From the IMG/VR virus record IMGVR_UViG_2721755663_000004: DNA of 32,882 bases; one strand, 5' to 3'. This DNA is from a virus. Its lineage: Duplodnaviria; Heunggongvirae; Uroviricota; Caudoviricetes. Shown here one piece after another: positions 7,697 to 32,882 of the stretch (position 1 is the stretch's first letter; every line of letters begins with the position of its first letter). A model generated the notes under the pieces. That model had not been told where the DNA came from, did not search any database, and was given only the letters and a program-made list of their open reading frames with translations. A program made the translations under genes and the position numbers.

Positions 7697-7756
7697 TCGT
7701 CATGCTCCATAAACGACAAAACCGCCCGGAGGCGGTTTCACATAAAACATTTTGCA

Positions 7757-8404: not shown

Positions 8405-9045
8405 TTGTCGGTATACCTCTCTCGTTTGCTCAGTTGTTCAGGAATATGGTGCAGCAGCTCGCCATCACCACAGTAAATGGCGGCATGATTCGGCACCGAT
8501 GAACCAAAACAGCACAGCAGCACATCGCCCGGCTGCGCCGCTGACAACGGCACCTGATACAGCCCTGTGGCCTCCAGATTATCCAGATAGAGATTCTGAC
8601 CGTTACGCCACCAGTCATCCCCGCGATGAAAATCCGGCATCTCAATTCCCGCCAGATGGTAAGCGTCCCGGAACAGCGTGTAACAGTCCGTTACCCCGTG
8701 CTCAAAGCGCCGCCCGGTGAGATGCGGCACACAGCGGAATTTATGAATCGCCCCCCGGCAGATCAGCCACCACGGCAAATCACTCTGTACCTGCAGCCGC
8801 CGGTCGGCCTCACTCAGCCAGGGCAGACCACCGGGGTGGCTGTGGACCAGCGCCACAATCTCTCCCTGCATTTCTGCACTCAGCCAGTCCTCCGGCGACA
8901 TCCGGAAATACTCCTCCGGCTCACCGGAGATATTCACGCAGGGAAAATATCTTTCCTCCTCCGGCGTTCTCACCACGAAGCCGCACGACTCCGCTGGCGC
9001 ACATCGCCGGGCGTGCGCCAGAATCGCTGATTCTGTCTCTGTCAT
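8302..9045 (-). CDS. K: Tail assembly protein K (JAB/MPN metalloprotease-like plus NlpC/P60-like domains)
   Basis: MTETESAILAHARRCAPAESCGFVV... matches lambda gpK; HSHPGGLPWLSEAD is a JAMM-like motif. An alternative internal start (MSPEDWL, about 8901) would give the shorter 199-aa annotation. Confidence 0.85.
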   Translation of the reverse strand: MTETESAILAHARRCAPAESCGFVVRTPEEERYFPCVNISGEPEEYFRMSPEDWLSAEMQGEIVALVHSHPGGLPWLSEADRRLQVQSDLPWWLICRGAIHKFRCVPHLTGRRFEHGVTDCYTLFRDAYHLAGIEMPDFHRGDDWWRNGQNLYLDNLEATGLYQVPLSAAQPGDVLLCCFGSSVPNHAAIYCGDGELLHHIPEQLSKRERYTDKWQRRTHSLWRHRAWHASAFTGICNDLAAASIFV

Positions 9046-9050
9046 GGGAT

Positions 9051-9749
9051 TTACTGCGAAAGTTTGTTAATGGAAAGGAAGCTGCCAAAGTTGCCGACAT
9101 TATTGCGAAACTTACAGCCACTCAGGCATTTGCTGCATTTATCCTTCGTGATATCGGACGTCGGCTGGTCATATTCATCCGCGACCGCCGGACCGCTATA
9201 ACCGCACTCATCGCCGCGATAGGTCCAGGTGCAGGTGTTGGCCAGCATGATACGTCCCGGAAAAACAGCGCCATCCGTTTCAGTCGGCGTGGACAGTACA
9301 AAAGAGGCACTGACCGCGCTCAGTTCGCTGCACTGCTCGATGCGCCAGCGGCTGATCACCTCCTGCTCCGGATCGGCTTCGCTGTTTCCGTTGACGAAGT
9401 TCACCGCATCCAGAAAGCGGGCGTAAACCTTACGCCGGACCACCGTTCCGCCGACCAGACTCTGCATATCTTCCGCCATCCCGGTGACCATACCGTACAG
9501 GTTAGAAACCGTCAGCGTGGGGCGCGTACTGGTGCCTTTGCCATTCAGTTCAAAACCGCTCCCCTGAATGGGATACGGCTGATACTGTCGCCCCTGCCAG
9601 GTGACCGGCTCACCTTTTTCGTTCTGCTCATTACAGAAAAAATAACGTTCTCCACCGACCTCTGTCAGGTCGATTTCCCAGAGCACCACGCTGGCCGACT
9701 GCTCCGCACGGGTGCATTCATTCAGTGTTTCCTGCCGGATATCCTGCAT
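9051..9749 (-). CDS. L: Tail tip protein L, 232 aa
   Basis: MQDIRQETLNECTRAEQSASVVLWEIDLTEVGGERYFFCNEQNEKGE... matches lambda gpL; C-terminal Cys cluster CSKCLSGCKF. Confidence 0.9.
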   Translation of the reverse strand: MQDIRQETLNECTRAEQSASVVLWEIDLTEVGGERYFFCNEQNEKGEPVTWQGRQYQPYPIQGSGFELNGKGTSTRPTLTVSNLYGMVTGMAEDMQSLVGGTVVRRKVYARFLDAVNFVNGNSEADPEQEVISRWRIEQCSELSAVSASFVLSTPTETDGAVFPGRIMLANTCTWTYRGDECGYSGPAVADEYDQPTSDITKDKCSKCLSGCKFRNNVGNFGSFLSINKLSQ

Positions 9750-10078
9750 CAGTTCACCACCTGTTCAAACTCTGCGCTGAACTCAACACGCAACATACTG
9801 ACCCGCGACGACCATTTTGCGCAGGTCACCTTTATCTGCCGCCACTCATAAGGCGGCGTCCACAGAAAGGATTTCCAGCCCCCGTGCTCTTCCAGAAACG
9901 ACTCCAGTACCGTGGCCTCCTCACGGGGGACAGAAAGCGTCACGCTGTACGTTTTCAGGTTGGCATTCAGCCCGGCAGGCGCTCGCTGAGAATAGCCATC
10001 ACCAAAGCGCACCTTTCTTACAGAAGGGACCGAAGCCACATCCATACCGGGTTTCACTTTCCAGCGGAAGGTCTTCAT
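9749..10078 (-). CDS. M: Tail tip protein M, 109 aa
   Basis: MKTFRWKVKPGMDVASVPSVRKVRFGDGYSQRAPAGLNANLKTYSVTLSV... matches lambda gpM; start overlaps the H stop. Confidence 0.9.
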   Translation of the reverse strand: MKTFRWKVKPGMDVASVPSVRKVRFGDGYSQRAPAGLNANLKTYSVTLSVPREEATVLESFLEEHGGWKSFLWTPPYEWRQIKVTCAKWSSRVSMLRVEFSAEFEQVVN

Positions 10079-12636
10079 CGTCCACCTCCGGAGAACAGGC
10101 CACCATCACGCATCTGTGTCTGAATTTCATCACGGGCACCCTTGCGGGCCATGTCATACACCGCCTTCAGAGCAGCCGGACCTATCTGCCCGTTCGTGCC
10201 GTCGTTGTTAATCACCACATGGTTATTCTGCTCAAACGTCCCGGACGCCTGCGACCGGCTGTCTGCCATGCTGCCCGGTGTACCGACATAACCGCCGGTG
10301 GCATAGCCGCGCATCAGCCGGTAAAGATTCCCCACGCCAATCCGGCTGGTTGCCTCCTTCGTGAAGACAAACTCACCACGGTGAACAATCCCCGCTGGCT
10401 CATATTTGCCGCCGGTTCCCGTAAATCCTCCGGTTGCAAAATGGAATTTCACCGCAGCGGCCTGAATGGCTGTACCGCCTGACGCGGATGCGCCGCCACC
10501 AACAGCCCCGCCAATGGCGCTGCCGATACTCCCGACAATCCCCACCATTGCCTGCTTAAGCAGAATTTCTGTCATCATGGACAGCACGGAACGGGTGAAG
10601 CTGCGCCAGTTCTGCTCACTGCCGGTCAGCATCGCCGCCATATTCTGTGCAATACCATCAAAGGTCTGCGTGGCAGCACTTTTAACCTGCGACATACTGT
10701 CCGTGGCGCTCTCTTCCCACTCACTCCAGCCTGACCTGAGGCCTGCCATCCAGCTCCCGCGAAGCTGGTCTTCAGCTGCCCAGGTCTTTTTCTGCTCTGA
10801 CATGACGTTATTCAGCGCCAGAGGATTATCGCCATACTGTTCCTTCAGGCGCTGTTCCGTGGCTTCCCGCGCTGCCTGCCGGTCAGTCAGCCCCCGGTTT
10901 TTTGCATCAATGGCGGCCCGTTTTGCCCGTTGCTGCTGTGCGAATTTATCCGCCTGCTGTGCCAGCGCGTTCAGGCGCTCCTGATACGTGACCTTATCGC
11001 CAAGTACAGCCAGCTGGCGTTTGTACTCCAGCGTCTCATCTTTATGCGCCAGCAGGGATTTTTCCTGTGCGGACAGCTGGCGACGTTGTGCCGCCTCCTC
11101 CAGTACCGCGAACTGATTTTCCGCCTTCCACAAATCCCGGCGCTGCTGGCTGATTTTCTCATTCGCTCCGGCATGCTTCTCCAGCGTCCGGAGTTCTGCC
11201 TGAAGCGTCAGCAGGGCAGCATGAGCATTGTCTTCCTGACGATCGCCCGCAGACACCTTCACGCCGGACTGTTTCGGCTTTTTCAGCGTCGCTTCATAAT
11301 CCTTTTTCGCCGCCGCCATCAGCGTGTTGTAATCTGCCTGCAGGATTTTCCCGTCCTTCAGTGCCTTGTTCAGTTCTTCCTGACGGGCGGTATATTTCTC
11401 CAGCGGCGTCTGCAGCCGTTCGTAAGCCTTCTGCGCCTCTTCGGTATATTTCAGCCGTGACGCTTCGGTATCGCTCTGCTGCTGCGCATTTTTGTCCTGT
11501 TGAGTCTGCTGCTCAGCCTTCTTTCGGGCGGCTTCAAGCGCAAGACGGGCCTTTTCACGATCATCCCAGTAACGCGCCCGCGCTTCATCGTTAACAAAAT
11601 AATCATCCTTGCGCAGATTCCAGATGTCGTCTGCTTTCTTAAACGCAGCCTCTGCCTTAATCAGCATCTCCTGCGCGGTATCAGGACGACCAATATCCAG
11701 CACTGCATCCCACATGGATTTGAATGCCCGTGCAGTCCTGTCTGCCCAGGTCTCCAGCGTGCCCATGTTCTCTTTCAGGCGGCGGGTCTGGTCATCAAAC
11801 CCTTTCGTTGCGGCCTCGTTCGCTGCCTGCAATGCCCCGGCCTCATCGCCGGAACGCTGCAACTGAGCAACATACGCAATCTGCTCCGCCGTCACGTTAT
11901 GGAACTGGCGCGCCATCGCCGTCAGCCCCGACGTCGGGTCTGTGGTCAGCTTCCCGAAGGCTTCAGCGACCTTGTCCACCTCCACGCCGGATGCAGAGGA
12001 GAAACGCGCCACACTCTGGCTGATGGACGCAATCTGAGCCTCACCGCTTACCCCCGCCTTAACCAGTGCGCTGAGTGACTCGCTGGTCTGGTTAAACGTC
12101 AGCCCTGCCGCCTGCCCGGCTCTGGACAGGACCAGCATACGATCTGCCGTCAGTCCCGCCTGATTGCCGGAAAGGACCAGCGTTTTGTTGAAATCGGACA
12201 GGGTTGAGTTGCCCTGATACCAGGCATACGCCAGCGCTCCGGTCGCCACCGCCAGCGAGGTAGCCCCCACCATCGGCAGGGTGATCGCACCGGCAAGCCC
12301 CCGGAACATGGGGATCATCCCGCCGAAGGAGTCCTTCACCTGACCCCCCTGTTGCAGCAGGATCAGCCACGGACTTTGCCCGCCTGCAAGCTGCGTGGCC
12401 ACGTCAGTGAACTGCGCAGGCAGCATACGCATGGCGGCTTTATACTGCCCGACGGAAATTCCCGCTTTCTGTGCAGCCAGCGCCTGCCGGTTCATCGACT
12501 GTTCAACGACTGCCGCTGTTTTTTTCGCATCACTTTCCGTACCGGAAAAATGACGCCTGACTCTGGCCATCTGCTCGTCAAATCTGGCCGCATCCAGACT
12601 CAAATCAACGACCAGATCGCCTACCGGTTCAGCCAT
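10075..12636 (-). CDS. H: Tail tape measure protein H, 853 aa
   Basis: Same length as lambda gpH; MAEPVGDLVVDLSLDAARFDEQMARVRRHF...; long coiled-coil-like central part and Gly-rich C-terminus. Confidence 0.95.
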   Translation of the reverse strand: MAEPVGDLVVDLSLDAARFDEQMARVRRHFSGTESDAKKTAAVVEQSMNRQALAAQKAGISVGQYKAAMRMLPAQFTDVATQLAGGQSPWLILLQQGGQVKDSFGGMIPMFRGLAGAITLPMVGATSLAVATGALAYAWYQGNSTLSDFNKTLVLSGNQAGLTADRMLVLSRAGQAAGLTFNQTSESLSALVKAGVSGEAQIASISQSVARFSSASGVEVDKVAEAFGKLTTDPTSGLTAMARQFHNVTAEQIAYVAQLQRSGDEAGALQAANEAATKGFDDQTRRLKENMGTLETWADRTARAFKSMWDAVLDIGRPDTAQEMLIKAEAAFKKADDIWNLRKDDYFVNDEARARYWDDREKARLALEAARKKAEQQTQQDKNAQQQSDTEASRLKYTEEAQKAYERLQTPLEKYTARQEELNKALKDGKILQADYNTLMAAAKKDYEATLKKPKQSGVKVSAGDRQEDNAHAALLTLQAELRTLEKHAGANEKISQQRRDLWKAENQFAVLEEAAQRRQLSAQEKSLLAHKDETLEYKRQLAVLGDKVTYQERLNALAQQADKFAQQQRAKRAAIDAKNRGLTDRQAAREATEQRLKEQYGDNPLALNNVMSEQKKTWAAEDQLRGSWMAGLRSGWSEWEESATDSMSQVKSAATQTFDGIAQNMAAMLTGSEQNWRSFTRSVLSMMTEILLKQAMVGIVGSIGSAIGGAVGGGASASGGTAIQAAAVKFHFATGGFTGTGGKYEPAGIVHRGEFVFTKEATSRIGVGNLYRLMRGYATGGYVGTPGSMADSRSQASGTFEQNNHVVINNDGTNGQIGPAALKAVYDMARKGARDEIQTQMRDGGLFSGGGR

Positions 12637-13063
12637 ACCGGACTCCTCCTGCGATCCCTTCTGATACTGTCATCAGCATTACGTCATTCTCCGTCATGTC
12701 CGCCACATCCGGGGAAGCGGGGATAACTTCATTCCCGTCCGGACCAAAGCGGACGCCTCCGGCAAGCCCTGCCGCTTTCTGCATCAGCACATCATCTTCA
12801 GGCTCTTCGTCAGCCTCGCGCCGGTTCAGCAGACTGAAATCCAGCGGATGCATATCCGGATCGCTGAAAAACAGGCTGAGTACGGTGTACGTCAGCCCGG
12901 AAAAGTGCATATCCAGCAGAACATCATGAAAATAATGGGTACTGTAAAAGCGGTGCCAGTCGGCATACTCCGTGGATGACATCCCGGCAAGCATGGCGCG
13001 CCAGTCGGGTCGCCCCATCTCACGCGCCAGTTTCAGGGCAAAACTCAGCTCACCGTCGAACAC
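12629..13063 (-). CDS. T: T segment of tail assembly chaperone G-T (made only by -1 frameshift from G)
   Basis: -1 frame ORF continuing from the G slippery site to a stop at 12629; MFDGELSFALKLAREMGRPDWRAMLAGMSSTEYADWHRFYSTHYF... matches the T part of lambda gpGT. Confidence 0.8.
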   Translation of the reverse strand: MFDGELSFALKLAREMGRPDWRAMLAGMSSTEYADWHRFYSTHYFHDVLLDMHFSGLTYTVLSLFFSDPDMHPLDFSLLNRREADEEPEDDVLMQKAAGLAGGVRFGPDGNEVIPASPDVADMTENDVMLMTVSEGIAGGVRYG

Positions 13064-13467
13064 TTTCCCGCAGAAACAGGCTCTGCTGGCCCGGCGTCAT
13101 CTGCCTGTTCAGGTGCATCATTCACAACAAACTCAGACATACCGGACAGACGCATTACCATATTTTCAGCCTGAGCAATTGCCTCTGTGGGCCAGGTGGT
13201 AAGCACTTCCTGCTCAATTTGTTTAACGGCTTCATTCATGGACGGCATCTTTGTCTTCTGCGGATGGCTATGCCACAGAGACATCGCCACCAGAAAAGCA
13301 CCGGTTCTGACGAGATCTTCCACGCTCACCTGTCGATTGAGACTGGATCCCGCCTGTTCTGCCTGTCGTTTCAGCAGGGCGAGATGCTCAATTCGCTGCA
13401 GGGCTGACAGTTCAGAAAGCGTGACGCTCACACCGTTATATTCAAATGATTCGGTTTTCAGGAACAT
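13045..13467 (-). CDS. G: Tail assembly chaperone G, 140 aa
   Basis: MFLKTESFEYNGVSVTLSELSALQRIEHLALLKRQAEQAGSS... matches lambda gpG; ends ...SAGKCSTVS just after the slippery heptamer. Confidence 0.9.
   Translation of the reverse strand: MFLKTESFEYNGVSVTLSELSALQRIEHLALLKRQAEQAGSSLNRQVSVEDLVRTGAFLVAMSLWHSHPQKTKMPSMNEAVKQIEQEVLTTWPTEAIAQAENMVMRLSGMSEFVVNDAPEQADDAGPAEPVSAGKCSTVS
13063..13069 (-). other. Programmed -1 ribosomal frameshift site G GGA AAG (G to G-T)
   Basis: Plus-strand ctttccc at 13063-13069 is GGGAAAG on the minus strand, in G frame as G.GGA.AAG, 6 codons before the G stop; the -1 frame is open to 12629. Confidence 0.8.
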
Positions 13468-13482
13468 CGCTGACTCTCCGGA

Positions 13483-14223
13483 TTAACTGTCGGTGACGGT
13501 GATTTCTGCAACCACAGCAAGTTCACCATTACCGGATACAACCGGAATGTTGACCTTGCCTGCAGCAACACCTTTCACGGTGATGGTCATACCACTGACC
13601 GACACGGTGGCTTTTGTTTTATCCGCAGACACCGCACGGAAGCTCTTGTCGGTTGCGCCTTCCGGCTGGAATGCCACGGTCAGCGTGGTGCTCTGCCCTT
13701 TCACCACCGAAGTGCTGGCAGGCGTCACGGTCATGCCGGTTGCCGCTGTTACCGTGCTGCGATCTTCTGCCATCGACGGACGTCCCACGTTGGTGACTTT
13801 CACCGTGCGGGTGATCACTTCCTTCGCCGTCACCGCCTTACCGATACTGCTGACCCAGCCGCGGAACACATCGACCGTGCCGTTCGGGAAGCGGATTTTA
13901 TAGGCACGGGTATCCCCTTCATTAAACCACGCCAGCAGCGCCTGCTGCCCCTGCTCTCCGGGCATCCACGCCAGCGTGAAGCTGGTATCTCCGGCAGATT
14001 TCTGCCCCTGCCCGGTCGCAGTCCAGTCCGCATCTTCATCATCGAGATAGCTGTCGTCATAGGACTCAGCGGTCAGTTCGCCGGGCGTCAGGTCTTTAAC
14101 TTTAGCCAGACGCGACCAGTCAACGTCTGAAAGCGGGTTCGCATAAGGGTCACCGTTCCCCTTATAAACCCACAGTGTGGTCCCGGCCCCTTTCACCGGC
14201 ATTACTGGATTTGGTACAGGCAT
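13483..14223 (-). CDS. V: Major tail protein V, 246 aa from the MPVPNP start
   Basis: [49 protein letters not shown]... matches lambda gpV; C-terminal Ig-like domain. The track ORF extends 10 codons further upstream (14253). Confidence 0.9.
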
Positions 14224-14230
14224 ATCGTCC

Positions 14231-14626
14231 TCACATTTCATAGGTAATGACATAAGTCAGATCGGCTGAACTCCACAGGCCCGCATCATCGTCGCGCCGG
14301 TAGTCATAGCCGCTGGCCACCATACTGGTGATCAAATCTGACAGTGCCGGGATATCGCTCATCACCGGATAAATCCGGGACTCCATCCACGAATCCAGCT
14401 CTGAATCCGGCACCTGAGCAGGCAGGAAAACTTCAATATGCAGCTCCGCCTGCCAGGTATCGCTGTCCAGCTCTTCGCCCGTGTATTCAGCGCCGGTGAG
14501 ATAAACGGCAATTGCCGGAAAATCCGCCTCATCAAAAACAGCGGGGCGACCATCAAAAAGCGTCGCCCCGGTGTCATGCTTCTCCAGTGCATCCAGTACG
14601 GCTGCACGGAGTTCAGTATGTTTCAT
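14231..14626 (-). CDS. U: Tail terminator protein U, 131 aa
   Basis: [52 protein letters not shown]... matches lambda gpU. Confidence 0.9.
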
Positions 14627-15201
14627 CGCTTTATTACCATTCTCAGTTGATGCTGCAGCGCATAGCCCAGCTCTTTCGGAAGACGTTCACGCCGTATCCG
14701 TTCAATATTCTGTTTAAACGCCGTGGTAAGCGGCACCGCCATCGGGATTTTCACCACATCAATGGGGTAACGGTTTTTCCCGGCCACACGCTGCATGACA
14801 TGCCACCGGCCATTTTTCAGTTGCTGAATAAACGCGCCGGGAATACGACGGTTTCCCACCACAAGCACGCTGCCGCCACCTTTCAGGGATGAACGCTGCC
14901 CCTTTTTACGACGTCTGCGGCGGGAAAGGACAACCCGCGCGTTACCCAGCTTGATTACGGGCAAATCCCCCCGGTTAACCCTGATTCTGGCCTGCGGATT
15001 TTTGACCGTGGCCCTTTTCAGCCTGGCCCTTTCCTTTACCAGTTTCCGGCGTACCTTTGTCTCACGGGCAACCTGTGCCACCGACTGCGATATCGCGGAT
15101 GAAGCAACGCGGTTAATGGCCATTGCGGCGGCACCGGGCACCGCCGTTCTGCTGATACGGCTGAGGTTTTCAACGGCCTGCTCAAGACCTTTTATGGCCA
15201 T
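14623..15201 (-). CDS. Z: Tail completion protein Z, 192 aa
   Basis: MAIKGLEQAVENLSRISRTAVPGAAAMAINRVASSAISQS... matches lambda gpZ; start overlaps the U region by 4 nt. Confidence 0.9.
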   Translation of the reverse strand: MAIKGLEQAVENLSRISRTAVPGAAAMAINRVASSAISQSVAQVARETKVRRKLVKERARLKRATVKNPQARIRVNRGDLPVIKLGNARVVLSRRRRRKKGQRSSLKGGGSVLVVGNRRIPGAFIQQLKNGRWHVMQRVAGKNRYPIDVVKIPMAVPLTTAFKQNIERIRRERLPKELGYALQHQLRMVIKR

Positions 15202-15212
15202 ACATCCCCCTT

Positions 15213-15566
15213 TCAGCGGCGACGGTTAACGGCAGGCGGTACGCCCCGCCCAAGCCAGAGATGACAGCTTCCGCCATCATCCGGCGAAATCCGGTCTATC
15301 CAGAAGTTTTCCTCACCGATGGTCAGCGTGTCGCCGCGCCGCAGCTGCCGCACATCATCAGTCCGGACAAACAGGGACGGGCTGGAGCCTTCAACGCGCA
15401 CGCCCTGTCCGGCATAGCTGATATTTTCAGGGTCATCAAAAACACCACGTATCACAGCACCGGACTGCTCACCGGATGTCATGGTGGCTGACGTTCCCAT
15501 GTACCCGCGTATCGTTTCATCGGCGCAGGCAATGGCAGCATCGAACAGGTTATCGAAATCAGCCAC
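15213..15566 (-). CDS. FII: Head-tail connector protein FII, 117 aa
   Basis: MADFDNLFDAAIACADETIRGYMGTSATMTSGEQSGAVIRGVFDDPENISYAG... matches lambda gpFII. Confidence 0.9.
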   Translation of the reverse strand: MADFDNLFDAAIACADETIRGYMGTSATMTSGEQSGAVIRGVFDDPENISYAGQGVRVEGSSPSLFVRTDDVRQLRRGDTLTIGEENFWIDRISPDDGGSCHLWLGRGVPPAVNRRR

Positions 15567-15577
15567 AGCGTCTCCCG

Positions 15578-15973
15578 TTATTGCATTCTGGCCAGGCCGC
15601 GCTCTGTCATTTCAGCTGCCACACCGGCAGAGACACGGAACGCCGTTCCCGGCAGCACAAATGCCACAGCCTCATCCCGCGTGGCGTGAAGTGCATCAGT
15701 ATGCAGCGTCACCAGTGCCACAACCGTGACCAGATCAGCCGTATCAGTCACGGTATCCGGCTGCGCTGATACAACCTCATTTTCATGTCCGGTCAGCACA
15801 TTTTCCGGGCTGAGAGGGGTATCCTGACCGGCAGTGTCGCCCGTGTCATCAAGCTCTTCTTCCAGCTCTGCCACACGGAGCGCCAGTTCTTCTTTCGTCC
15901 CCGTCAGGCTGATATCACGGTTCAGTTGTTCACCCAGCGAGCGGAGACGGGCAATCAGTTCATCTTTCGTCAT
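15578..15973 (-). CDS. FI: DNA packaging protein FI, 131 aa
   Basis: MTKDELIARLRSLGEQLNRDISLTGTKEELALRVAELEEELDD... matches lambda gpFI; ATG at 15971-15973 preceded by GGAGGAG; the track ORF starts 13 codons upstream. Confidence 0.85.
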   Translation of the reverse strand: MTKDELIARLRSLGEQLNRDISLTGTKEELALRVAELEEELDDTGDTAGQDTPLSPENVLTGHENEVVSAQPDTVTDTADLVTVVALVTLHTDALHATRDEAVAFVLPGTAFRVSAGVAAEMTERGLARMQ

Positions 15974-16014
15974 GGACTCCTCCACAGAGAAACAATGGCC
16001 CCGAAGGGCCATGA

Positions 16015-17040
16015 TTACGCCAGTTGAACGGACACGAACTCATCAGGATCAGCCAGCAGCATCAGCGGTGCTGACTGAATCATGGTGAACTCTCGCGCCG
16101 GATCGCCGGATGTCTTCCAGTTTTTCGGATAACGGGGAGACGCATTAATACCCTCACTCAATGCATCCGCATCCTGAATACAGCCATAGGTGCGCAGACC
16201 GCGTGCATGAGTGTTACCCAGCACCATCGTGTTGTCCGGCAGGAAGTTCTTTTTGACGCCGTTTTCCACGTACTGTCCGGAATACACGACGATGGCCACA
16301 TCGCCATACATTCCCTTATAGGACACCGCTTTGCCCAGGTCTTTTACCGCTGTCTCCAGCTCGGAATGAGAGCCGCGACGGGTATCCAGCTTCTCCTTGA
16401 CGGCTTTGAAGGAACGGAACAGCGCCCAGCCTTTCGGATCAAACACGATGATATTCACCACGCCGCTGGCGTTCAGCGCGTAGGCTTCGATATCGTCGGT
16501 CGGGTCATACGTGGACTTGTCACGCTTGCTCCACTCCGTGCCGCCGGACTGCGTGATGTTGTTCGCCGCACTGCGGCCCATATCCACCTCAACCGGATCG
16601 AAGGCTTCACCGGTCATGGTGTATTTGCCCTTAAGCACAGCAGAAACTGCCTGCATCTCTTCGACCTGAGCAATGGCCAGCTCTTCGTCTCGCATGTTCT
16701 GCATGATGATGCGACGGCGGCGGTAAGCCGGGTCCGCCAGATTCTGCGGATCTTCATCCGGCAGGCGACGCAGGGTCATCTGCGGATTCACCTCATGCTT
16801 GGGTTTGACATATCCCGGCGTAAATTCAGAGGTGGAGCCGCCACGGGAACGGATAACCTCACCGGAAACAATCGGCGAAACGTACAGCGCCATGTTTACC
16901 AGTCCCGGAATTTGTGAGAGATAGACTTTCTCCGTGGTGAAGGAATAGCTCTCACGGAAAAAGAGACGCAGAAACAGCGGATCAAACTTAAATTTCTGCT
17001 CATTTGCCGCCAGCAGCTGGGCGGTTGTGTACATCGACAT
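16015..17040 (-). CDS. E: Major capsid protein E, 341 aa
   Basis: MSMYTTAQLLAANEQKFKFDPLFLRLFFRESY... through ...DPDEFVSVQLA matches lambda gpE almost exactly; start set at MSMYTT (17038-17040). Confidence 0.95.
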   Translation of the reverse strand: MSMYTTAQLLAANEQKFKFDPLFLRLFFRESYSFTTEKVYLSQIPGLVNMALYVSPIVSGEVIRSRGGSTSEFTPGYVKPKHEVNPQMTLRRLPDEDPQNLADPAYRRRRIIMQNMRDEELAIAQVEEMQAVSAVLKGKYTMTGEAFDPVEVDMGRSAANNITQSGGTEWSKRDKSTYDPTDDIEAYALNASGVVNIIVFDPKGWALFRSFKAVKEKLDTRRGSHSELETAVKDLGKAVSYKGMYGDVAIVVYSGQYVENGVKKNFLPDNTMVLGNTHARGLRTYGCIQDADALSEGINASPRYPKNWKTSGDPAREFTMIQSAPLMLLADPDEFVSVQLA

Positions 17041-17095
17041 AAAAAAATCCCGTAAAAAAAGCCGCACAGGCGGCCTTTAGTGATGAAGGGTAAGG

Positions 17096-17428
17096 TTAAA
17101 CGATGCTGATTGCCGTTCCGGCAAACGCGGTCCGTTTTTTCGTCTCGTCGCTGGCAGCCTCCGGCCAGAGCACATCCTCATAACGGAACGTGCCGGACTT
17201 GTAGAACGTCAGCGTGGTGCTGGTCTGGTCAGCATCAACCGCCAGAATGCCAACGGCAGTACCGTCGGTGGTGCCATCCCACGCAACCAGCTTACGGGTG
17301 GAGGTGTCCAGCATCAGCGGGGTCATTGCAGGCGCTTTCGCACTCAATCCGCCGGGCGCGGTTGCGGTATGAGCCGGGTCACTGTTGCCCAGCGGCTGGT
17401 AATGGGTAAAGGTTTCTTTGCTCGTCAT
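17096..17428 (-). CDS. D: Capsid decoration protein D, 110 aa
   Basis: [43 protein letters not shown]... matches lambda gpD; start at MTSKE (17426-17428). Confidence 0.9.
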
Positions 17429-17437
17429 AAACATCCC

Positions 17438-18043
17438 TTACACTGGTGTGTTCAGCAAATCGTTAACGGCATCAGATGCCGGGTTACCTGCAGCCAGTGG
17501 TGTCGGTGCCCCCTGCATCAGACGATCCAGCGCAGTGTCACTGCGCGCCTGTGCACTCTGTGGTGCAGCTGCCAGAATGCGGCGGGCCGTTTCCACGGTC
17601 ATACCGGGGGTTTCGGCCAGCACACGTGCCTGTTCTTCGCGTCCGTGAGCCTCCTCACAGTTGAGGATCCCCATAATGCGGCTGTTTTCTGCCGCAACCG
17701 CAGCGGTGATCTGCGCGTTCACGTCCGGCTGCGCCGCGCTGGCGTTTTCGCCCTCCGTCGCTTGCACCACGTCAGTAACGTCAGCCTGCGAAGCAGTGGC
17801 TGAAACAGTTGTTGATTGAGTCTCTTTGGTCATTCGCCCTCCTGAGAGACGGGATTTACGTGCATCCAGTGCATCACGCATAACGGTGATCGCATCGGTG
17901 CTGTTGACAAGTTCATCAGCCAGTCCGGCATCAATGGCCTCCTGACCGCTGTACACTGCAGCCTCGGTATCCAGCACAGCCTGCACGGACAGGCCGGTAT
18001 ATGCCGACACCTTCTGCGCAAACATCCGGCGGGTTGCATCCAT
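17438..18043 (-). CDS. Nu3: Scaffolding protein Nu3 (in-frame internal start within C), 201 aa
   Basis: In-frame ATG at 18041-18043 giving MDATRRMFAQKVSAYTGLSVQ..., the same nested arrangement and length as lambda Nu3. Confidence 0.6.
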   Translation of the reverse strand: MDATRRMFAQKVSAYTGLSVQAVLDTEAAVYSGQEAIDAGLADELVNSTDAITVMRDALDARKSRLSGGRMTKETQSTTVSATASQADVTDVVQATEGENASAAQPDVNAQITAAVAAENSRIMGILNCEEAHGREEQARVLAETPGMTVETARRILAAAPQSAQARSDTALDRLMQGAPTPLAAGNPASDAVNDLLNTPV

Positions 18044-18737
18044 CCGGGACTGCAGTGTCTCCCGGACATCACCCGGTAGATGGCTGTAGGGGTTGCCATC
18101 CACCTTATGGCTGCCGCTGTAAATCAGCGTGATTTCCACGCCCTGTTTCTCCAGCGCAGCGCCGTAATTACTGTGAGCCATCATGACGCCGATGGAGCCT
18201 GTCCGGGCGGTCTGCGTGACCAGACGCCGGGAGGCGGCGCTGGCAAGCAGCTGACCTGCACTGCAGTTCATGTCGTTGGCCAGCGCCCATACCGGCTTTA
18301 TGTCACGCACACGGGCGATGATGTCAGCACAGTCAAATGCTCCCGCCACCATCCCGCCCGGTGTGTCCATATCGAGCAGAATGCCGTCCACCATCGGATC
18401 GCTGGCAGCCTGTTGCAGACGAGCGATAATGCCGTTGTAACCGGTCATTCCCGAATACGGCTGCAGCGCCCGCGTCCGGCTGACCAGCGTACCGGACACC
18501 GGCAGCACGGCGATGCCGTTCATGACCTGATAACTGCGGGCCTGTCGTGGTCCGTCATCATCACCGGATAACGCCAGCGCCGCGGGTGCCTCTCCGGCAG
18601 TCAGGCTGTCGCCGGATACTGCATCCGTCAGGCGACTGATCCCAAGCTGGCCTGCAAGCGCACAAAAGAAAACCCGCGCATAGGCGGGTTCAAGCATCAG
18701 CGGCTCATTAAAAGCCATGCTGGCAATATGCGGGAGA

Positions 18738-18757
<20 letters not shown>
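17438..18757 (-). CDS. C: Capsid assembly protease C (S49/ClpP-like), about 439 aa, GTG start
   Basis: (V)TAELRNLPHIASMAFNEPLMLEPAYARVFFCALAGQLGIS... matches lambda gpC; GTG at 18755-18757 preceded by GAGGAGGAG; 20-bp overlap with the B 3' end as in lambda. Confidence 0.85.
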
Positions 18758-22438
<3,681 letters not shown>

Positions 22439-22464
<26 letters not shown>

Positions 22465-22984
22465 TCAGCAACCCCGGTATCAGTTCATCCAGCGCGGCTG
22501 CTTTGTTCATGGCTTTGATGATATCCCGTTTCAGGAAATCAACATGTCGGTTTTCCAGTTCCGGAAAACGCCGCTGCACCGACAGGGGGATCCCGTCGAG
22601 AATACTGGCAATTTCACCTGCGATCCGCGACAGCACGAAAGTACAGAATGCGGTTTCCACCACTTCAGCGGAGTCTCTGGCATTTTTCAGCTCCTGTGCG
22701 TCGGCCTGCGCACGCGTAAGTCGATGGCGTTCGTACTCAATAGTCCCTGGCTGGAGATCTGTCTCGCTGGCCTGCCGCAGTTCTTCAACTTCCCGGCGCA
22801 GCTTTTCGTTCTCAATTTCAGCATCCCTTTCGGCATACCATTTTATGACGGCGGCAGAATCATAAAGCACCTCATTACCCTTCCCACCACCCCGCAGAAC
22901 GGGCATTCCCTGCTCCTGCCAGTTCTGAATGGTACGGATACTCGCGCCGAAAATGTCAGCCAGCTGCTTTTTGTTGACTTCCAT
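22439..22984 (-). CDS. Nu1: Terminase small subunit Nu1, 181 aa
   Basis: MEVNKKQLADIFGASIRTIQNWQEQGMPVLRGGGKGNEVLYDSAAVIKWYAERDAEIENEKLRREVEEL... matches lambda Nu1 (winged-HTH N-terminus). Confidence 0.95.
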
Positions 22985-23200
22985 TGTTCATTCCACGGAC
23001 AAAAACAGAGAAAGGAAACGACAGAGGCCAAAAAGCCCGTTTTCAGCACCTGTCGTTTCCTTTCTTTTCAGGGGGTGTTTTAAATAAAAACATTAAGTTA
23101 CGACGAAGAAGAACGGAAACGCCTTAAACCGGGAAATTTTCATAAATAGCGAAAACCCGAGAGGTCGCCGCCCCGTAACCTGTCGGATCGCCGGAAAGGA
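22985..23200. other. cos packaging site (cosB, cosN, cosQ); cosN 12-nt cohesive-end sequence at 23162-23173
   Basis: Sequence upstream of the Nu1 start is the reverse complement of the lambda left end as I recall it; aggtcgccgccc at 23162-23173 is the reverse complement of GGGCGGCGACCT; lambda right-end-like sequence continues beyond. Confidence 0.8.
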
Positions 23201-23372
23201 CCCGCAAAATGATAATGATTATCATCTGCATGTCACAACGTGCATCTACGCCATCAAACCACGTCAAATAATCAATTATGACGCAGGTATCGTATTAATT
23301 GATCTGCATCAACTTAACGTAAAAACAACTTCAGACAATACAAATCAGCGACACTGAATACGGGGCAACCTC

Positions 23373-23606
23373 ATGTCAACGAAGAACAGAACCCGCAGAA
23401 CAACAACCCGCAACATCCGCTTTCCTAACCAAATGATTGAACAAATTAACATCGCTCTTGAGCAAAAAGGGTCCGGGAATTTCTCAGCCTGGGTCATTGA
23501 AGCCTGCCGCCGGAGACTGTGCTCAGAAAAAAGAGTTTCTCCTGAAGCAAACAAAGAAAAGAGTGACATTACTGAATTGCTCAGAAAACAGATCAGACCA
23601 GATTGA
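23373..23606 (+). CDS. ylcI: Small DUF3950-type protein (YlcI-like), 77 aa
   Basis: MSTKNRTRRTTTRNIRFPNQMIEQINIALEQKGSGNFSAWVIEACRRRL... matches my recollection of K-12 DLP12 YlcI and the ORF at the lambda right end; C-terminus differs. Confidence 0.6.
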   Translation: MSTKNRTRRTTTRNIRFPNQMIEQINIALEQKGSGNFSAWVIEACRRRLCSEKRVSPEANKEKSDITELLRKQIRPD

Positions 23607-24377: not shown

Positions 24378-24902
24378 TCAATTAATCAGCAGTTCAGGCT
24401 GTGTCACCTGCAAGATGTATTCATGCTCGACAGCCAGGACACGCTTCTCTTTCTTCCGTTCGTTCATTAACCGACTGCCGATCGTACCTTTCAGCTTTGA
24501 GCGTGTTTCTTTGATGGCGTAGCGGTGCTGCATTTCTTCGCCAATTGCCATGCGGCGGCTCAGTTGTTCTGCCATCCAGTTGAATGCTGCGATATAGCTC
24601 TCCTTGATTGCCGCAGCAGCTTTCCCGGTGAACCCCATCACAACCATGATCCAGCCATCTTTCGTCAGGCTGTACATCGGGCGAACCTTGCCCTGCTCAT
24701 CGATATAATCAGCCGACGCAAAATTGCGTTGGCTAAACTCACGCGAGCAATCAGCCTTAACCTGCTCGATTTTCCTGAGAACATCACCGTGTCGCTTGCC
24801 GAAGTACTTGGCAATTTTTCTGGATGTGGTAACGACCTCTCCGTTTTTGGCTTGCACCATTTCTCGGAAGTCGAAGGCTGGAATAACTGAATGATTATTC
24901 AT
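24378..24902 (-). CDS. rha: Rha-family phage regulatory protein, 174 aa
   Basis: MNNHSVIPAFDFREMVQAKNGEVVTTSRKIAKYFGKRHGDVLRKIEQ... carries the Rha N-terminal signature (GKRHxxVLR); ATG at 24900-24902. The 81 upstream codons of the track ORF look non-coding. Confidence 0.7.
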   Translation of the reverse strand: MNNHSVIPAFDFREMVQAKNGEVVTTSRKIAKYFGKRHGDVLRKIEQVKADCSREFSQRNFASADYIDEQGKVRPMYSLTKDGWIMVVMGFTGKAAAAIKESYIAAFNWMAEQLSRRMAIGEEMQHRYAIKETRSKLKGTIGSRLMNERKKEKRVLAVEHEYILQVTQPELLIN

Positions 24903-25069: not shown

Positions 25070-25244
25070 TAAATCCTGGTATTTGTAATGAACTGGCTCT
25101 TATCTCAACGCAGCCCCTTACTGCGCGCCAGATGCTCAATATCAAGCATCAGCAATGAGATGTTTAATCTGGATTTACTCCAGAAGTGATCACCACCCTG
25201 TCTACAGAGCCAGATGTGAAGGATGATGAGTAAAATTATCGCTA

Positions 25245-25712
25245 TCATCGAAGGCATTGCGTCCTAATGTATTCCTGAAGCGTTCTCAGTGCTGTTTGGT
25301 CGCGGATAATTCCGTCCCGGATATCGAGAACGTTTCGTCCAGCAACTGGAGAGAGTTCGACGGTGGCATCATTGCCCATGCCGGAGGCGCTGGAGGTTTC
25401 GGCAGAGGATGGCACAGGGCATTTTCCTTTGACGAGCACCCTGCCACCATTATCAAGCTTCCGCAGAAGAGCATCATTTTCAGCTTTCGCATCAGCTAAC
25501 TCCTTCGTGTATTTTGCATCGAGCGCAGCAACATCACGCTGACGCATCTGCATGTCAGTAATTGCCGCGTTCGCCAGCTTCAGTTCTCTGACATTTTTGT
25601 CGCGCTGGGCTTTGTAGGTAATGGCGTTATCACGGTAATGATTAACAGCCCATGACAGGCAGACGATGATGCAGATAACCAGAGCGGAGATAATCGCGGT
25701 TACTCTGCTCAT
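25245..25712 (-). CDS. Rz: Spanin inner-membrane subunit Rz (i-spanin), 155 aa
   Basis: [79 protein letters not shown]... matches lambda Rz in the N-terminal two thirds; start overlaps the R stop (ATGA). Confidence 0.85.
25286..25492 (-). CDS. Rz1: Spanin outer-membrane lipoprotein Rz1 (o-spanin), embedded in the +1 frame of Rz, 68 aa
   Basis: [23 protein letters not shown]... with lipobox VAGC and proline-rich [11 protein letters not shown], entirely nested within Rz as in lambda Rz/Rz1. Confidence 0.7.
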
Positions 25713-26206
25713 TGTTTCCCCCACAAACAGACTTCACGCTCAATCTCACGGCGAGTCATCAGTCCTTTCCATTGATTACCGCCAGCGTATGTCCAGCGCC
25801 GTAGCTGATCACATGCGCCTTTGATATCACCGTGGTTTATTTTGCGAAGAAGCGTCGATGTTCTGAAATTGCCAGCACCCACGTTGTAGACGAACGAGTA
25901 AAGAGCGCCGCGCGTTGTTTCCGGTATATCAACTTTTATGTACGGGTTAATTTGTCTGGCGACCGTGGCAAGGTCTTTATTCAGGAGGGCTTTGCATTCT
26001 GCTTTGGTATACGTTTTACCGAGCATGATGTCTTTTCCTGTATGCCCGTGACATACAGTCCATACACCAACAATATCTTTGTATGGTATGTAGCTGACAC
26101 CTTCCAGACCATCGTTACCACTTGGGCCAGTGATTAACACTGATGCTATAGCAATTGCTCCGCCACCAATAGCAGCAGCAACGGCTTTTCGTAATGATGG
26201 AGGCAT
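25709..26206 (-). CDS. R: SAR endolysin (phage-21-type lysozyme R, T4-lysozyme fold), 165 aa
   Basis: Gly/Ala-rich N-terminal signal-anchor-release segment [20 protein letters not shown]; catalytic E-x8-D-x5-T pattern ([16 protein letters not shown]); matches the phage-21 / DLP12 RrrD-type endolysin. Confidence 0.9.
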
Positions 26207-26421
26207 TATTCACCTCTCGCAGCCTTGCGCTTATCTTCTTTAATCTTGAAATAAAGGTTTGTCAGGTACGTCAGCAGGCCAAATACCAGGCTACCCAGCA
26301 CTCCAATTGCCGCCCACTGTGAGGGCGTGACTTTATCTAGCAGCTGTAAAAACCAGTACCCGGCACTACCTGCTGAGGTGCCATAGGCGACACCCGTTGT
26401 TAACTTATCCATGGATTTCAT
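26206..26421 (-). CDS. S: Pinholin (phage-21 S-type holin), 71 aa, dual-start motif
   Basis: [71 protein letters not shown]; two TM segments, charged C-terminus, Met1/Met4 dual start; matches S21 / EssD. Confidence 0.9.
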
Positions 26422-26530
26422 AACCCCACCTCGCAGACAAAGCGGGTGTAAATTGAGGGAATACTACGAAACGTAACAGACTCGGAGTCAGTGAATAACT
26501 CAGGTATTGGGTTATCAGCTAATATCGAGA

Positions 26531-26993: not shown

Positions 26994-28091
26994 ATGAAAA
27001 AATTAACAGTGGCAATTTCTGCTGTAGCTGCATCAGTACTGATGGCGATGTCTGCTCAGGCAGCTGAAATTTATAATAAAGACAGTAACAAGCTGGATCT
27101 GTACGGGAAAGTTAATGCTAAGCACTACTTCTCCTCTAATGATGCAGATGATGGTGATACTACTTATGCCCGTCTTGGCTTCAAAGGTGAAACCCAAATC
27201 AACGATCAACTGACTGGTTTCGGTCAGTGGGAATATGAATTCAAAGGCAACCGCGCTGAATCTCAAGGTTCCTCCAAAGATAAAACCCGTCTTGCCTTCG
27301 CTGGCCTGAAATTCGGTGACTACGGCTCCATCGATTACGGCCGTAACTACGGTGTAGCATACGACATCGGTGCGTGGACTGACGTCCTGCCAGAATTCGG
27401 TGGTGACACTTGGACTCAAACCGACGTGTTCATGACTCAACGTGCAACTGGTGTTGCAACCTATCGTAACAACGACTTCTTTGGTCTGGTTGATGGTCTG
27501 AACTTTGCTGCTCAGTACCAAGGCAAAAACGATCGTAGCGATTTCGATAACTACACCGAAGGTAACGGTGATGGCTTCGGTTTCTCTGCTACCTATGAAT
27601 ACGAAGGATTCGGTATCGGTGCAACTTATGCGAAATCTGATCGTACCGACACTCAGGTTAATGCAGGGAAAGTTCTTCCTGAAGTATTTGCTTCCGGTAA
27701 AAATGCAGAAGTTTGGGCCGCAGGTCTGAAATATGACGCTAACAACATTTACCTGGCCACTACCTATTCTGAAACCCAGAATATGACTGTATTTGCTGAT
27801 CACTTCGTTGCTAATAAAGCTCAAAACTTCGAAGCTGTTGCACAATATCAGTTCGATTTCGGTCTGCGTCCGTCCGTTGCTTACCTGCAATCTAAAGGTA
27901 AGGATCTTGGAGTATGGGGCGATCAGGACTTAGTCAAATATGTTGATGTAGGTGCAACCTATTACTTCAACAAAAATATGTCTACTTTCGTTGATTACAA
28001 AATCAACCTGCTTGACAAAAATGACTTCACTAAAGCACTCGGTGTAAGCACTGATGACATCGTTGCTGTAGGTCTGGTTTACCAGTTCTAA
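26994..28091 (+). CDS. nmpC: OmpC/OmpF-family general porin (NmpC / phage PA-2 Lc-like), 365-aa precursor
   Basis: [23 protein letters not shown] signal peptide then [24 protein letters not shown]... ending ...VAVGLVYQF; AAAGGG RBS before ATG 26994; orientation opposite to the late genes. The track ORF has a 20-codon upstream extension. Confidence 0.9.
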
Positions 28092-28228
28092 TCTGATTAC
28101 GAAAAAGATATGTTGCGGGAGGCGTTGCCTCCCCAACATATAAGTGGCTCCCTCAAGCCACTTCCTTTAGGAGCACAACCTTGCTTCTAACTATATAAAC
28201 CTTCTGTTATATATTACCCTTTATTTTT

Positions 28229-28280: not shown

Positions 28281-28664
28281 TTAATTAGAGTTATTAACAA
28301 CGATATCCATCTCTAACCGGATATCTAATGCCATTAACATCCCTTCAATTATACCCTCAGCCTTCTGTAACCTTTTCCCGATATAACCATCAGAGCAGCA
28401 ATGCTTACCTGCCAGTGACATGAATGTCATACCGACTACATAATAATCTACTAATAAATCATGCAAATCGCTGTTGTTCTTTTTCAGACGGGCCATGCAC
28501 CCGCAAATGATCATCGCGTCATCGTCACAACATTGTGGGCGAGATTTTACTTTTGAAGGAATTAATCCCTTAAAACCGGCGGCAATGGACGACCAGGTCA
28601 CATCTTCATGATTATTAGCCGCCCACGCTCCCCAACGCTCAAGAACCATCTGAATATCACGCAT
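28281..28664 (-). CDS. Q: Late-gene antiterminator Q (short 21/82/DLP12 QuuD-type), 127 aa
   Basis: [60 protein letters not shown]... with Cys cluster (zinc-finger-like); position upstream of the lysis cassette. Confidence 0.8.

Positions 28665-31430: not shown

Positions 31431-32882
<1,452 letters not shown>

Follow-up and report, generated by a model that had tools for sequence, protein, structure and literature searches.

A predicted pinholin and SAR-endolysin lysis cassette like those of phage 21 and DLP12 among the late genes of a defective lambda-like Escherichia coli prophage

How an element with the heads, tails and cos site of lambda would lyse its host with genes of the phage 21 type, and how such a combination arose, was the question raised by a stretch of 32,882 nucleotides recorded as a tailed phage (IMG/VR record IMGVR_UViG_2721755663_000004; the window hereafter, to which all coordinates refer). 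The original prediction had explained the combination by exchange of the lysis module. We aligned the modules to lambda, phage 21 and DLP12 and found that identity differed by module, with sharp steps at the module boundaries, in agreement with an exchange that joined lambda heads, tails and cos to S and R of the phage 21 family. We consider it highly probable that the cassette is the known pinholin/SAR-endolysin type of phage 21 and DLP12, a standard design for lysis of Gram-negative hosts, that it belongs to the late operon of a lambda-like but defective prophage, and that the mechanism and patchwork origin proposed below apply. The features are listed in Table 1.

Table 1. Features of the lysis cassette and of its surroundings, in window coordinates.
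Feature	Position	Strand	Remarks
Lambda-type morphogenesis module, Nu1 to most of J	4727..23535	-	ORF lengths equal or close to those of lambda
cosN, 12-nt lambda cohesive end	23162..23173	-	Exact match to GGGCGGCGACCT; cosQ and cosB lambda-type
Rha-family regulator gene (rha)	24378..24902	-	PF09669, 4e-28; annotated in D9
50-aa hydrophobic ORF (orf50)	25105..25257	-	Overlaps Rz stop; phrog_11822, 2e-37, no assigned function; hypothetical in D9 and PhiR70_1
Rz, predicted i-spanin	25245..25712	-	155 aa from ATG; ATGA overlaps R stop
Rz1, predicted o-spanin lipoprotein	25286..25492	-	68-aa precursor; fully nested, +1 frame of Rz
R, predicted SAR endolysin, GH24 (T4-lysozyme-like) muramidase	25709..26206	-	165 aa
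S, predicted class II holin (pinholin)	26206..26421	-	71 aa; N-terminus MKSMDK
NmpC/OmpD-type porin moron	26994..28091	+	Intact; PF00267, 6e-157; antisense to late operon, between Q and S
QuuD-type late antiterminator Q	28281..28664	-	127 aa; PF06530, 1e-53; 98-100% nucleotide identity to DLP12 quuD
Truncated lambda integrase	32466..32882	+	C-terminal 138 codons only; 99.8% to lambda int; abuts IS3-family transposase remnant

The structural proteins and cos had been described as close to lambda, and the alignments confirmed this. The morphogenesis module was 96.4% identical to lambda in nucleotide sequence over 18,851 aligned bases (18.8 kb), with 96-99% identity in the Nu1 region and an exact cosN. 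The cosQ-cosN-cosB region matched lambda at 260/277 positions, as against 185/283 for phage 21. The heads and cos of phage 21 were only 65-72% identical to those of the window, whereas its tails reached 94%.

S matched the Pfam family "Bacteriophage P21 holin S" (PF04971) with E=2e-35 and 121 bits, the cut-off being 26. Protein alignment showed identity at all 71 of 71 residues to EssD of DLP12 and at 61/71 (86%) to S of phage 21, with the dual-start motif M1-K2-S3-M4 matching phage 21 S exactly; the record of that phage (OL657228) annotates the two starts as S71/S68. With Met1 and Met4 both present, the expected 71-aa dual-start pinholin was recovered. Translation from Met1 would give the S71 antiholin, with its extra Lys, and translation from Met4 the S68 holin; a GAGGTGG Shine-Dalgarno sequence was found upstream. 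The first transmembrane domain (TMD1, about residues 9-28) consisted to 55% of Gly/Ala/Ser/Thr, and its mean hydropathy never exceeded 1.0, which makes it weakly hydrophobic and SAR-like. TMD2 (about residues 36-58) was strongly hydrophobic, contained the helix-packing motif G40xxxS44xxxG48 (GxxxSxxxG), and was followed by a charged C-terminal tail. The lysis cassette of phage 21 has the same families and architecture, and its S has the same MKSM dual start and G40/S44/G48, with nucleotide identity between the two genes at 76-80% in the 5' part. The pinholin/SAR-endolysin pathway, including its heptameric pinholes, is a studied system (PMC9636201), and S is predicted to form such small heptameric pinholes, which would depolarise the membrane without releasing a cytoplasmic endolysin.

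R, the start of which shares 1 nt with the S stop, matched PF00959 (7e-45). The predicted SAR endolysin with an E-x8-D-x5-T motif was found as E35-x8-D44-x5-T50, a catalytic triad absent from lambda R, behind an N-terminal SAR domain (residues 8-26) made up to 63% of Gly/Ala/Ser/Thr. It was identical to RrrD of DLP12 at 162/165 residues (98%) and to R21 of phage 21 at 160/165 (97%); R21 shares residues 1-97 completely and has the SAR domain and the E35/D44/T50 triad in common with R. Solved structures exist for near-identical chains, namely 4ZPU (RrrD; match 4e-110) and 3HDE/3HDF (3HDE, a 165-residue lysozyme; match 3e-109). Because of the 97-98% identity to R21 and RrrD (PMC9636201), R would be expected to undergo Sec-dependent export, to be tethered to the membrane in an inactive state, and to be released on collapse of the proton motive force.

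Neither S nor R resembled its lambda counterpart, as the claim that the lambda S105 holin and R transglycosylase had been replaced requires. Forced global alignments gave 22% identity to lambda S and 21% to lambda R, both of which are unrelated to the window proteins, and nucleotide comparison to lambda found no S or R homology anywhere in the window. The lambda genes stand at the same late-operon position and likewise serve to make holes and to degrade murein. Lambda S forms very large holes that release the cytoplasmic enzyme. Unlike lambda R, the R of the window would be exported beforehand, and depolarisation alone would be needed.

Rz and Rz1 were recognised by PF03245 (6e-31) and PF06085 (8e-19), respectively. 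Rz has an N-terminal transmembrane domain (about residues 4-24, hydropathy up to 3.07) followed by a periplasmic domain; Rz1 has the lipobox MVAG/C19 with Ser20 at +2 (no Asp) and a proline-rich PKPPAPPAW motif. Rz1 covers 0.47-0.91 of the length of Rz, a range typical of embedded spanins (PMC6139136). The periplasmic Cys98 and Cys153 of Rz and Cys27 of Rz1 are at positions equivalent to those of lambda, in which C99 and C152 of Rz and C29 of Rz1 serve homotypic intermolecular disulfides (PMC6139136). By position, the three residues are candidate disulfide cysteines.

The nested arrangement of Rz/Rz1 and the divergence of distal Rz from lambda were both as predicted, but the divergent part was not the C-terminal third: it comprised the C-terminal 47% (residues 83-155). 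Residues 1-82 were identical to lambda Rz at 81/82 positions, as against 25/74 aligned columns for residues 83-155 and 26/69 for Rz1. When compared with the Salmonella phages ST104 and SPN3UB, the same distal part was identical at 67-68/73 (about 92%) and Rz1 at 61-62/68. Judged by these alignments, Rz is chimeric, with codons 1-82 of the lambda type and codons 83-155, together with mature Rz1, of the ST104/SPN3UB type. The nucleotide junction falls after nt 245 of the gene, at about position 25468, at the end of a conserved block. ST104 and SPN3UB have Rz and Rz1 genes of the same lengths (468 and 207 nt) in the same embedded layout, but their N-terminal halves differ from that of the window Rz (69/82 and 47/82 identical), the ST104 holin gene encodes a protein of different sequence from S, and the virion module of ST104, a Lederbergvirus member, is P22-like. 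The C-terminal allele is shared by SE21 and further phages. Occurrence of the chimera in isolated phages, PhiR70_1, Kati and Ayreon among them, suggests that the lambda-type N-half is compatible with the ST104-type C-half and Rz1.

From identities of 86-100% to studied proteins, we propose the following course of lysis. Late transcription, antiterminated by Q, would pass the antisense porin gene into S-R-Rz/Rz1, and S would be made from both starts, as antiholin (S71) and as holin (S68). R, exported by Sec, would be kept inactive at the inner membrane by the SAR domain, which is weakly hydrophobic. Once lysis is triggered, TMD1 of S68 would exit the bilayer, TMD2 would build the pinholes, and the proton motive force would collapse. 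The freed R would refold in the periplasm to the active muramidase (E35/D44/T50) and degrade the murein. The Rz-Rz1 spanin complex, whose architecture and disulfides are known from studied spanins (PMC6139136), would then disrupt the outer membrane, probably via fusion with the inner membrane.

Between Q and the porin gene, a simple scan for promoter consensus sequences gave no convincing late promoter (4 hits, compared with 8.9 expected in shuffled sequence); the promoter is assumed to be present from the 98-100% identity to DLP12. Terminator-like hairpins were seen as candidates at 26566-26545 and 25070-25051. The porin gene was 99-100% identical to nmpC of DLP12, the K-12 copy of which is interrupted by IS5. 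In phage 21, S is preceded by two tRNA genes; a search for tRNA genes upstream of the window S found none, the place being taken by the porin gene. At the Rz end of the cassette, the stretch 24264-25467 had no match to lambda, phage 21 or DLP12 in nucleotide comparison. There, orf50 accompanies the ST104-type Rz C-part, Rz1 and rha, as it does in PhiR70_1, and rha occupies the site of bor in lambda, phage 21 and DLP12.

By nucleotide identity, the S-R segment is closest to DLP12, not to phage 21. DLP12 was 98.3% identical over 25468-28033, as against 92.1% overall for phage 21, and identity to DLP12 stayed at 96-100% over 25468-30337 and returned to that level over 22157-23535. Both elements have their genes in the order ybcN-ninE-ybcO-rusA-ylcG-quuD-porin (antisense)-S-R-Rz, the lysis module of DLP12 being quuD-nmpC-essD-rrrD-rzpD/rzoD, and nohD and the A fragment of DLP12 are 97.8% identical to Nu1/A of the window. 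DLP12 differs in its IS5-split porin gene and in the loss of almost all structural genes, which appear complete in the window (open ORFs of lambda-like lengths). Further, the Rz C-terminus and Rz1 are lambda-type in DLP12, with bor next to them, and ST104-type in the window, with orf50 and rha next to them. The Rz C-terminus and Rz1 of phage 21 differ from those of the window as well.

On these comparisons, the lysis cassette is made of three parts, its Rz C-part and Rz1 being from a third source of the ST104/SPN3UB type. In the patchwork that we propose, the segment from cos through J would be of the lambda type and the ybcN-Q-porin-S-R segment of the DLP12 type. The N-terminal half of Rz, common to lambda, phage 21 and DLP12, would link to a third piece consisting of the Rz C-half, Rz1, orf50 and rha, with the ST104/SPN3UB allele for Rz/Rz1. 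The pieces would have been joined by homologous crossovers in conserved blocks.

Modular exchange had been set against uniform identity to one reference phage, and here the outcome was divided. One phage, PhiR70_1 (PV340577), was 95-97% identical over 6702-30337, from the tail genes through the ybcN-Q region, and 99.5% identical over the cassette; relative to lambda and phage 21, the window is still mosaic. The match to PhiR70_1 places the element in a common and already sequenced lineage, and by these alignments it is mosaic with respect to lambda and phage 21 without being a new recombinant. PhiR70_1, whose relatives include Kati, Ayreon and vB_EcoS-569R4, likewise has the chimeric Rz, orf50, rha, cos and lambda-type heads and tails. 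Unlike the window, it represents a complete phage, in which an immunity and replication region is present; IS4 is inserted between E and FI, and identity falls to 72-87% in the middle of the porin gene.

The label "phage" itself did not stand. The window was 100% identical to the chromosome of E. coli D9 over the 28,583 bases compared (28.6 kb), where the prophage adjoins ybhC, and the D9 annotation describes int as "incomplete; missing N-terminus" and places a frameshifted, incomplete ISEc52-like transposase next to it. The stretch 30338-32464 had no match to any early gene of lambda, phage 21 or PhiR70_1. N, cI, cro, O and P are absent, and the gene content falls short of a complete, inducible lambdoid prophage; the reading frames of the structural genes, Nu1 to tfa, are open and of the same or nearly the same length as in lambda. 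With int truncated beside an IS3-family remnant and the early region missing, the element is, by gene content, a defective prophage and not a complete phage. Since the N-terminal part of int and the immunity and replication genes have been lost, a normal lytic cycle is probably impossible in this host, and the cassette may never be expressed within one.

This state of the element raises the alternative that S-R-Rz/Rz1 is a domesticated module, serving not phage release but the host, for instance in maintaining the cell wall or in controlling the output of outer membrane vesicles (OMVs), as has been reported for the lysis operon of DLP12. The deleted early region and truncated int would fit such a history, as would the identity of S (100%) and R (98%) to EssD and RrrD of DLP12. 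Deletion of the DLP12 lysis module alters OMV production, and expression of that module responds to stress (PMC7918800). Some match to the cassette stretch (24300-26700) was also found in 5201/5426 complete E. coli genomes. However, the open ORFs from Nu1 to tfa and the nucleotide identity of about 96% over Nu1-J point to recent inactivation and not to a long history of domestication, and the same cassette works in free phages, including PhiR70_1, Kati, Ayreon and 434B. We regard domestication as unlikely. It would be compatible with the molecular lysis mechanism proposed above.

Far less probable is a recent and unique cross between a lambda-like phage and a resident DLP12-like prophage, with junctions new to this element. 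The long stretches of 96-100% identity to DLP12 would be expected from such a cross, and 434B (OL657227) shows that this kind of replacement occurs: this plaque-forming, lambda-like phage has exchanged about 5.5 kb, comprising Q, the late promoter and the lysis genes, for the syntenic segment of DLP12 (PMC9119081). It carries the DLP12-type Q-porin-pinholin-SAR endolysin segment, 96.2% identical to the window over S-R-Rz 5', but it arose by laboratory exchange on K-12, with the nmpC::IS5 allele, a lambda-type Rz C-terminus and Rz1, and bor. Phage 434 was considered as a natural precedent and rejected, since the matching record OL657227 is this laboratory derivative; 434B thus shows that the exchange is viable, not that it has a natural precedent. 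Against a recent cross, PhiR70_1 and 82 E. coli genomes share these junctions, which largely refutes it; moreover, the Rz C-part, orf50 and rha are absent from DLP12, and DLP12 itself has the lambda-type nohD and A fragment. With these remnants, DLP12 would seem to belong to the same lineage in a more decayed state, and not to be a donor. As the simplest account, DLP12 as module donor was rejected on the same grounds: its Nu1/A remnants are lambda-type, and the ST104-type Rz C-terminus, orf50 and rha are all missing from it.

That the mosaic is an artefact of assembly or a chimeric contig has a negligible chance, as D4, ECC-1470 and many other independent complete genomes from different hosts carry the cassette stretch with 100% identity, and the D9 chromosome is identical over 28.6 kb. 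No evidence in favour of an artefact was found.

Under the preferred reading, a known cassette in a defective lambda-like prophage, the combination is not new and was already known from many sequenced phages and genomes. At least 80% of 24300-26700 was present in 82/5426 complete E. coli genomes. At least nine phages (Kati, PhiR26_1, PhiR29_1, PhiR29_2, PhiR30_1, PhiR34_1, PhiR68_2, mEp332 and Turner) were among the best matches of the cassette and also among those of the lambda-type structural region. Judging from this overlap of best-match lists, which is not a systematic count, lambda-type virion genes of natural E. coli phages appear to be joined commonly to the DLP12-type pinholin/SAR-endolysin cassette and not to lambda S/R. 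The window is a textbook case of lambdoid modular mosaicism, all parts of which have close, studied relatives, and its import beyond correct annotation is small; the proper label of the element is a defective prophage, not a phage.

The least ordinary feature of the window is the chimeric spanin, in which the lambda-type part corresponds to the TMD and first helix. More speculatively, the conserved Rz block might be a recurrent crossover site at which the distal Rz helix and Rz1 are swapped as one co-adapted unit, and, as a separate matter, the intact cassette without early genes might represent an early stage of the domestication suggested for DLP12; we put the two forward together only tentatively, as a rather doubtful pair. 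If the co-adapted unit were real, natural alleles could be used to map which parts of Rz and Rz1 must match. Rz1 is unannotated in the RefSeq record of strain D9, and its annotation is due.

Comparison of the window by BLAST with lambda, phage 21, DLP12 (the cryptic prophage of E. coli K-12) and Escherichia phage PhiR70_1 (PV340577) divided it into modules. Lambda matched at 96.4% over 4727-23535, a stretch that starts some 360 bp to the left of cos and takes in Nu1 and the genes up to most of J, and at 98.8% over the first 245 nt of Rz (25468-25712), with no match to S or R. Phage 21 matched at 92.1% over S, R and the 5' part of Rz (falling to 76-80% within the 5' part of S) and at about 94% in the tail genes, but at only 65-72% in the head genes and cos region. 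The cosQ-cosN-cosB region was identical to that of lambda at 260/277 positions, against 185/283 for phage 21. The BLAST identities and the cos alignment therefore upheld the original prediction of lambda-type heads, tails and cos combined with a pinholin/SAR endolysin cassette of the phage 21 family. DLP12 matched at 98.3% over 25468-28033 and 96.3% over 28025-30337. Thus the label "phage-21-type" was right as to family, but DLP12, not phage 21, came closest to the lysis-regulatory segment.

The lysis cassette occupies 25245-26421 on the minus strand and consists of four genes, S, R, Rz and Rz1 (pinholin, SAR endolysin, i-spanin and o-spanin). The ATG of R overlaps the stop codon of S by one base, and the Rz start overlaps the R stop (ATGA); the mechanical ORF of Rz reaches further, to a GTG at 25724. 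All four products matched curated families far above threshold and fell into PHROGs lysis families (S, holin; R, endolysin; Rz and Rz1, both Rz-like spanin), therefore the predicted coordinates and gene descriptions were correct.

Features of the window discussed in the text
Feature	Position	Strand	Remarks
tfa	1-585	-	present
Lom	3613-4212	-	present
cosN	23162-23173		GGGCGGCGACCT, exact match
Rha-family regulator gene	24378-24902	-	
50-aa hydrophobic ORF	25105-25257	-	phrog_11822, no assigned function; overlaps Rz stop codon
Rz	25245-25712	-	155 aa counted from ATG; PF03245 Rz, 6e-31
Rz1	25286-25492	-	68 aa, +1 frame, wholly within Rz; PF06085 Rz1, 8e-19
R	25709-26206	-	165 aa; PF00959 phage lysozyme, 7e-45
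S	26206-26421	-	71 aa; PF04971 "Bacteriophage P21 holin S", 2e-35
NmpC/OmpD-type porin gene	26994-28091	+	intact; antisense between Q and S
Hypothetical ORF	30344-30826	-	160 aa
Theta-like pseudogene			between DUF4145 gene and 160-aa ORF
DUF4145 gene	31083-31430	-	after transposase remnant
IS3-family (ISEc52-like) transposase remnant	about 31441-32479	+	frameshifted, incomplete; abuts int remnant
lambda int remnant	32466-32882	+	last 138 codons (C-terminal) only, 99.8% identical

S begins with M1-K2-S3-M4, the dual-start motif of the phage 21 holin S21, and with its PF04971 match it fits the dual-start pinholin that had been predicted. A weakly hydrophobic segment (residues 9-28, 55% Gly/Ala/Ser/Thr) is followed by a strongly hydrophobic TMD (residues 36-58) with G40xxxS44xxxG48 and by a charged C-terminal tail. 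The protein was identical to its DLP12 counterpart EssD at 71/71 residues and to phage 21 S at 61/71; a forced alignment with lambda S gave 22%. R has a Gly/Ala-rich N-terminal SAR segment (residues 8-26) and carries E35, D44 and T50, in agreement with the proposed SAR endolysin with E-x8-D-x5-T. It shared 162 of 165 residues with RrrD of DLP12 and 160 with the phage 21 endolysin R21, and structures have been solved for near-identical chains (4ZPU, RrrD; 3HDE/3HDF). The motif was not found in lambda R, with which R aligned at 21%.

The N-terminus of Rz holds a TMD, and the periplasmic Cys98 and Cys153 are the counterparts of C99 and C152 in lambda Rz. Rz1 has the lipobox MVAG|C19 with Ser at +2, the proline-rich motif PPAPPAW, and Cys27 corresponding to C29 of lambda Rz1; it spans 0.47-0.91 of the Rz length, the range in which some 70% of embedded spanins are reported to lie (PMC6139136). 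The predicted divergence of the nested Rz/Rz1 from lambda was present, but it covered 47% of Rz and not one third: residues 1-82 were identical at 81/82, and residues 83-155 at 25/74. Rz1 was identical to lambda Rz1 at 26/69, retaining only the first eight residues, the lipobox and the PPxPPAW motif. Searching with the divergent 73 residues by tblastn gave 93-96% in the Salmonella phages ST104, SPN3UB, SE21 and others; in P22, HK022 and phi80 types the figure was about 40%. Compared directly with ST104 and SPN3UB, the C-terminal half of Rz matched at 67-68/73 and Rz1 at 61-62/68, whereas the N-terminal half differed (69/82 and 47/82, respectively). The first lambda mismatches lie directly after nt 245 of Rz, and homology to lambda, phage 21 and DLP12 alike ends at 25468. 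This junction coincides with the end of a 15-residue protein block conserved across all compared Rz alleles, the pattern that a homologous crossover within a conserved linker should leave. The one mildly interesting point is the spanin chimera: a crossover in the conserved block would move the distal Rz domain and the embedded Rz1 together. On sequence identity, we class the cassette as DLP12-type inside the phage 21 family; its Rz C-terminus and Rz1, of ST104 type, make it tripartite.

The ST104-type segment extends past Rz into the 50-aa ORF and the Rha-family gene, which stand in place of the lipoprotein gene bor of lambda, phage 21 and DLP12. Homology to lambda and DLP12 returns weakly (about 80%) at 24263 in a ybcV-like gene, and near-identity returns from 23535. 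In PhiR70_1, the 50-aa ORF accompanies the ST104-type Rz C-terminus and Rz1; a terminator-like hairpin follows this ORF at 25070-25051. In the place equivalent to that of the Rha-family gene, ST104 and SPN3UB carry a KilA-N gene.

Comparison with the E. coli strain D9 chromosome (NZ_CP010152.1) covered 28,583 bases and showed 100% identity to the window; in that chromosome the prophage adjoins ybhC. No homologues of xis, exo/bet/gam, N, cI/cro or O/P were found in the window, the whole early region from xis to P being missing; beyond the 160-aa ORF lies a DLP12-like block, ybcN-ninE-ybcO-rusA-ylcG-quuD. The late region is apparently intact, with structural ORFs from Nu1 to tfa open and of lengths equal or close to those of lambda. 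Given the truncated int, the missing early genes and the intact-looking late region, the predicted "mosaic phage" is indeed mosaic but is better read as a defective mosaic prophage, probably disabled recently through loss of the early region beside the IS remnant.

The combination of lambda-type virion genes with a 21/DLP12-family lysis cassette is already known. The cassette and its flanks were 99.5% identical in PhiR70_1, which matched 6702-30337, including the lysis genes, cos, heads and tails, at 95-97%. The best hits for the cassette and those for the lambda-type structural region shared nine phage records (Kati, PhiR26_1, PhiR29_1, PhiR29_2, PhiR30_1, PhiR34_1, PhiR68_2, mEp332 and Turner). 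At least 80% of 24300-26700 was present in 82 of 5426 complete E. coli genomes, many 100% identical, and 5201 had some match. The combination is no new recombinant but part of an existing lineage; the mosaic observation was confirmed, and its interpretation stands with these refinements. DLP12 also has lambda-type Nu1/A remnants: its ylcI-nohD-aaaD remnant, comprising nohD and the A fragment (16284-17662 of the DLP12 sequence), was 97.8% identical to cos-Nu1-A of the window (22157-23535). This identity implies that the DLP12 ancestor had lambda-type packaging genes and shared a lineage with the window prophage, of which DLP12 is best regarded as a representative in more advanced decay. In the laboratory derivative phage 434B (OL657227), a DLP12 segment has taken the place of some 5.5 kb with Q, the late promoter and the lysis genes (PMC9119081).

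Near-identity to studied proteins makes the following working scheme of lysis most likely. Antitermination by the QuuD-type Q would let late transcription cross the antisense porin gene and a hairpin at 26566-26545 into S. S71 and S68 would gather in the inner membrane, while R would be exported and held inactive through its SAR domain. Triggering of S68 would open small pinholes and collapse the proton motive force, R would be set free and refold into an active muramidase, and the Rz-Rz1 complex would then eliminate the outer-membrane barrier. The same pathway is described for phage 21 (PMC9636201; PMC6139136). Normal induction is unlikely in D9 because the early genes are missing; the cassette could either stay silent or show the kind of low-level expression that has been reported for DLP12 (PMC7918800).

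The porin was 99-100% identical to K-12 DLP12 nmpC, which is split by IS5 whereas the window copy is intact. PhiR70_1, otherwise near-identical, has a porin gene with only 72-87% identity to the middle part of this one (about 27400-28100), suggesting allelic exchange inside the gene. In the tail module, identity to each of lambda, phage 21 and PhiR70_1 fell to 79-80% in a K/I tail-tip patch (7883-8382, minus strand), against 94-100% in its surroundings. No lambda match was seen for the final ~150 codons of J (4283 to about 4727, minus strand), and the side tail fibre gene (585-3554, minus strand, 989 aa) had only patchy matches of 78-90%; these differences suggest a receptor specificity unlike that of lambda. 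In the RefSeq annotation of D9 (NZ_CP010152.1; 20989-21456 of the D9 segment analysed), Rz is named "lysis protein" and the embedded Rz1 o-spanin gene is absent.
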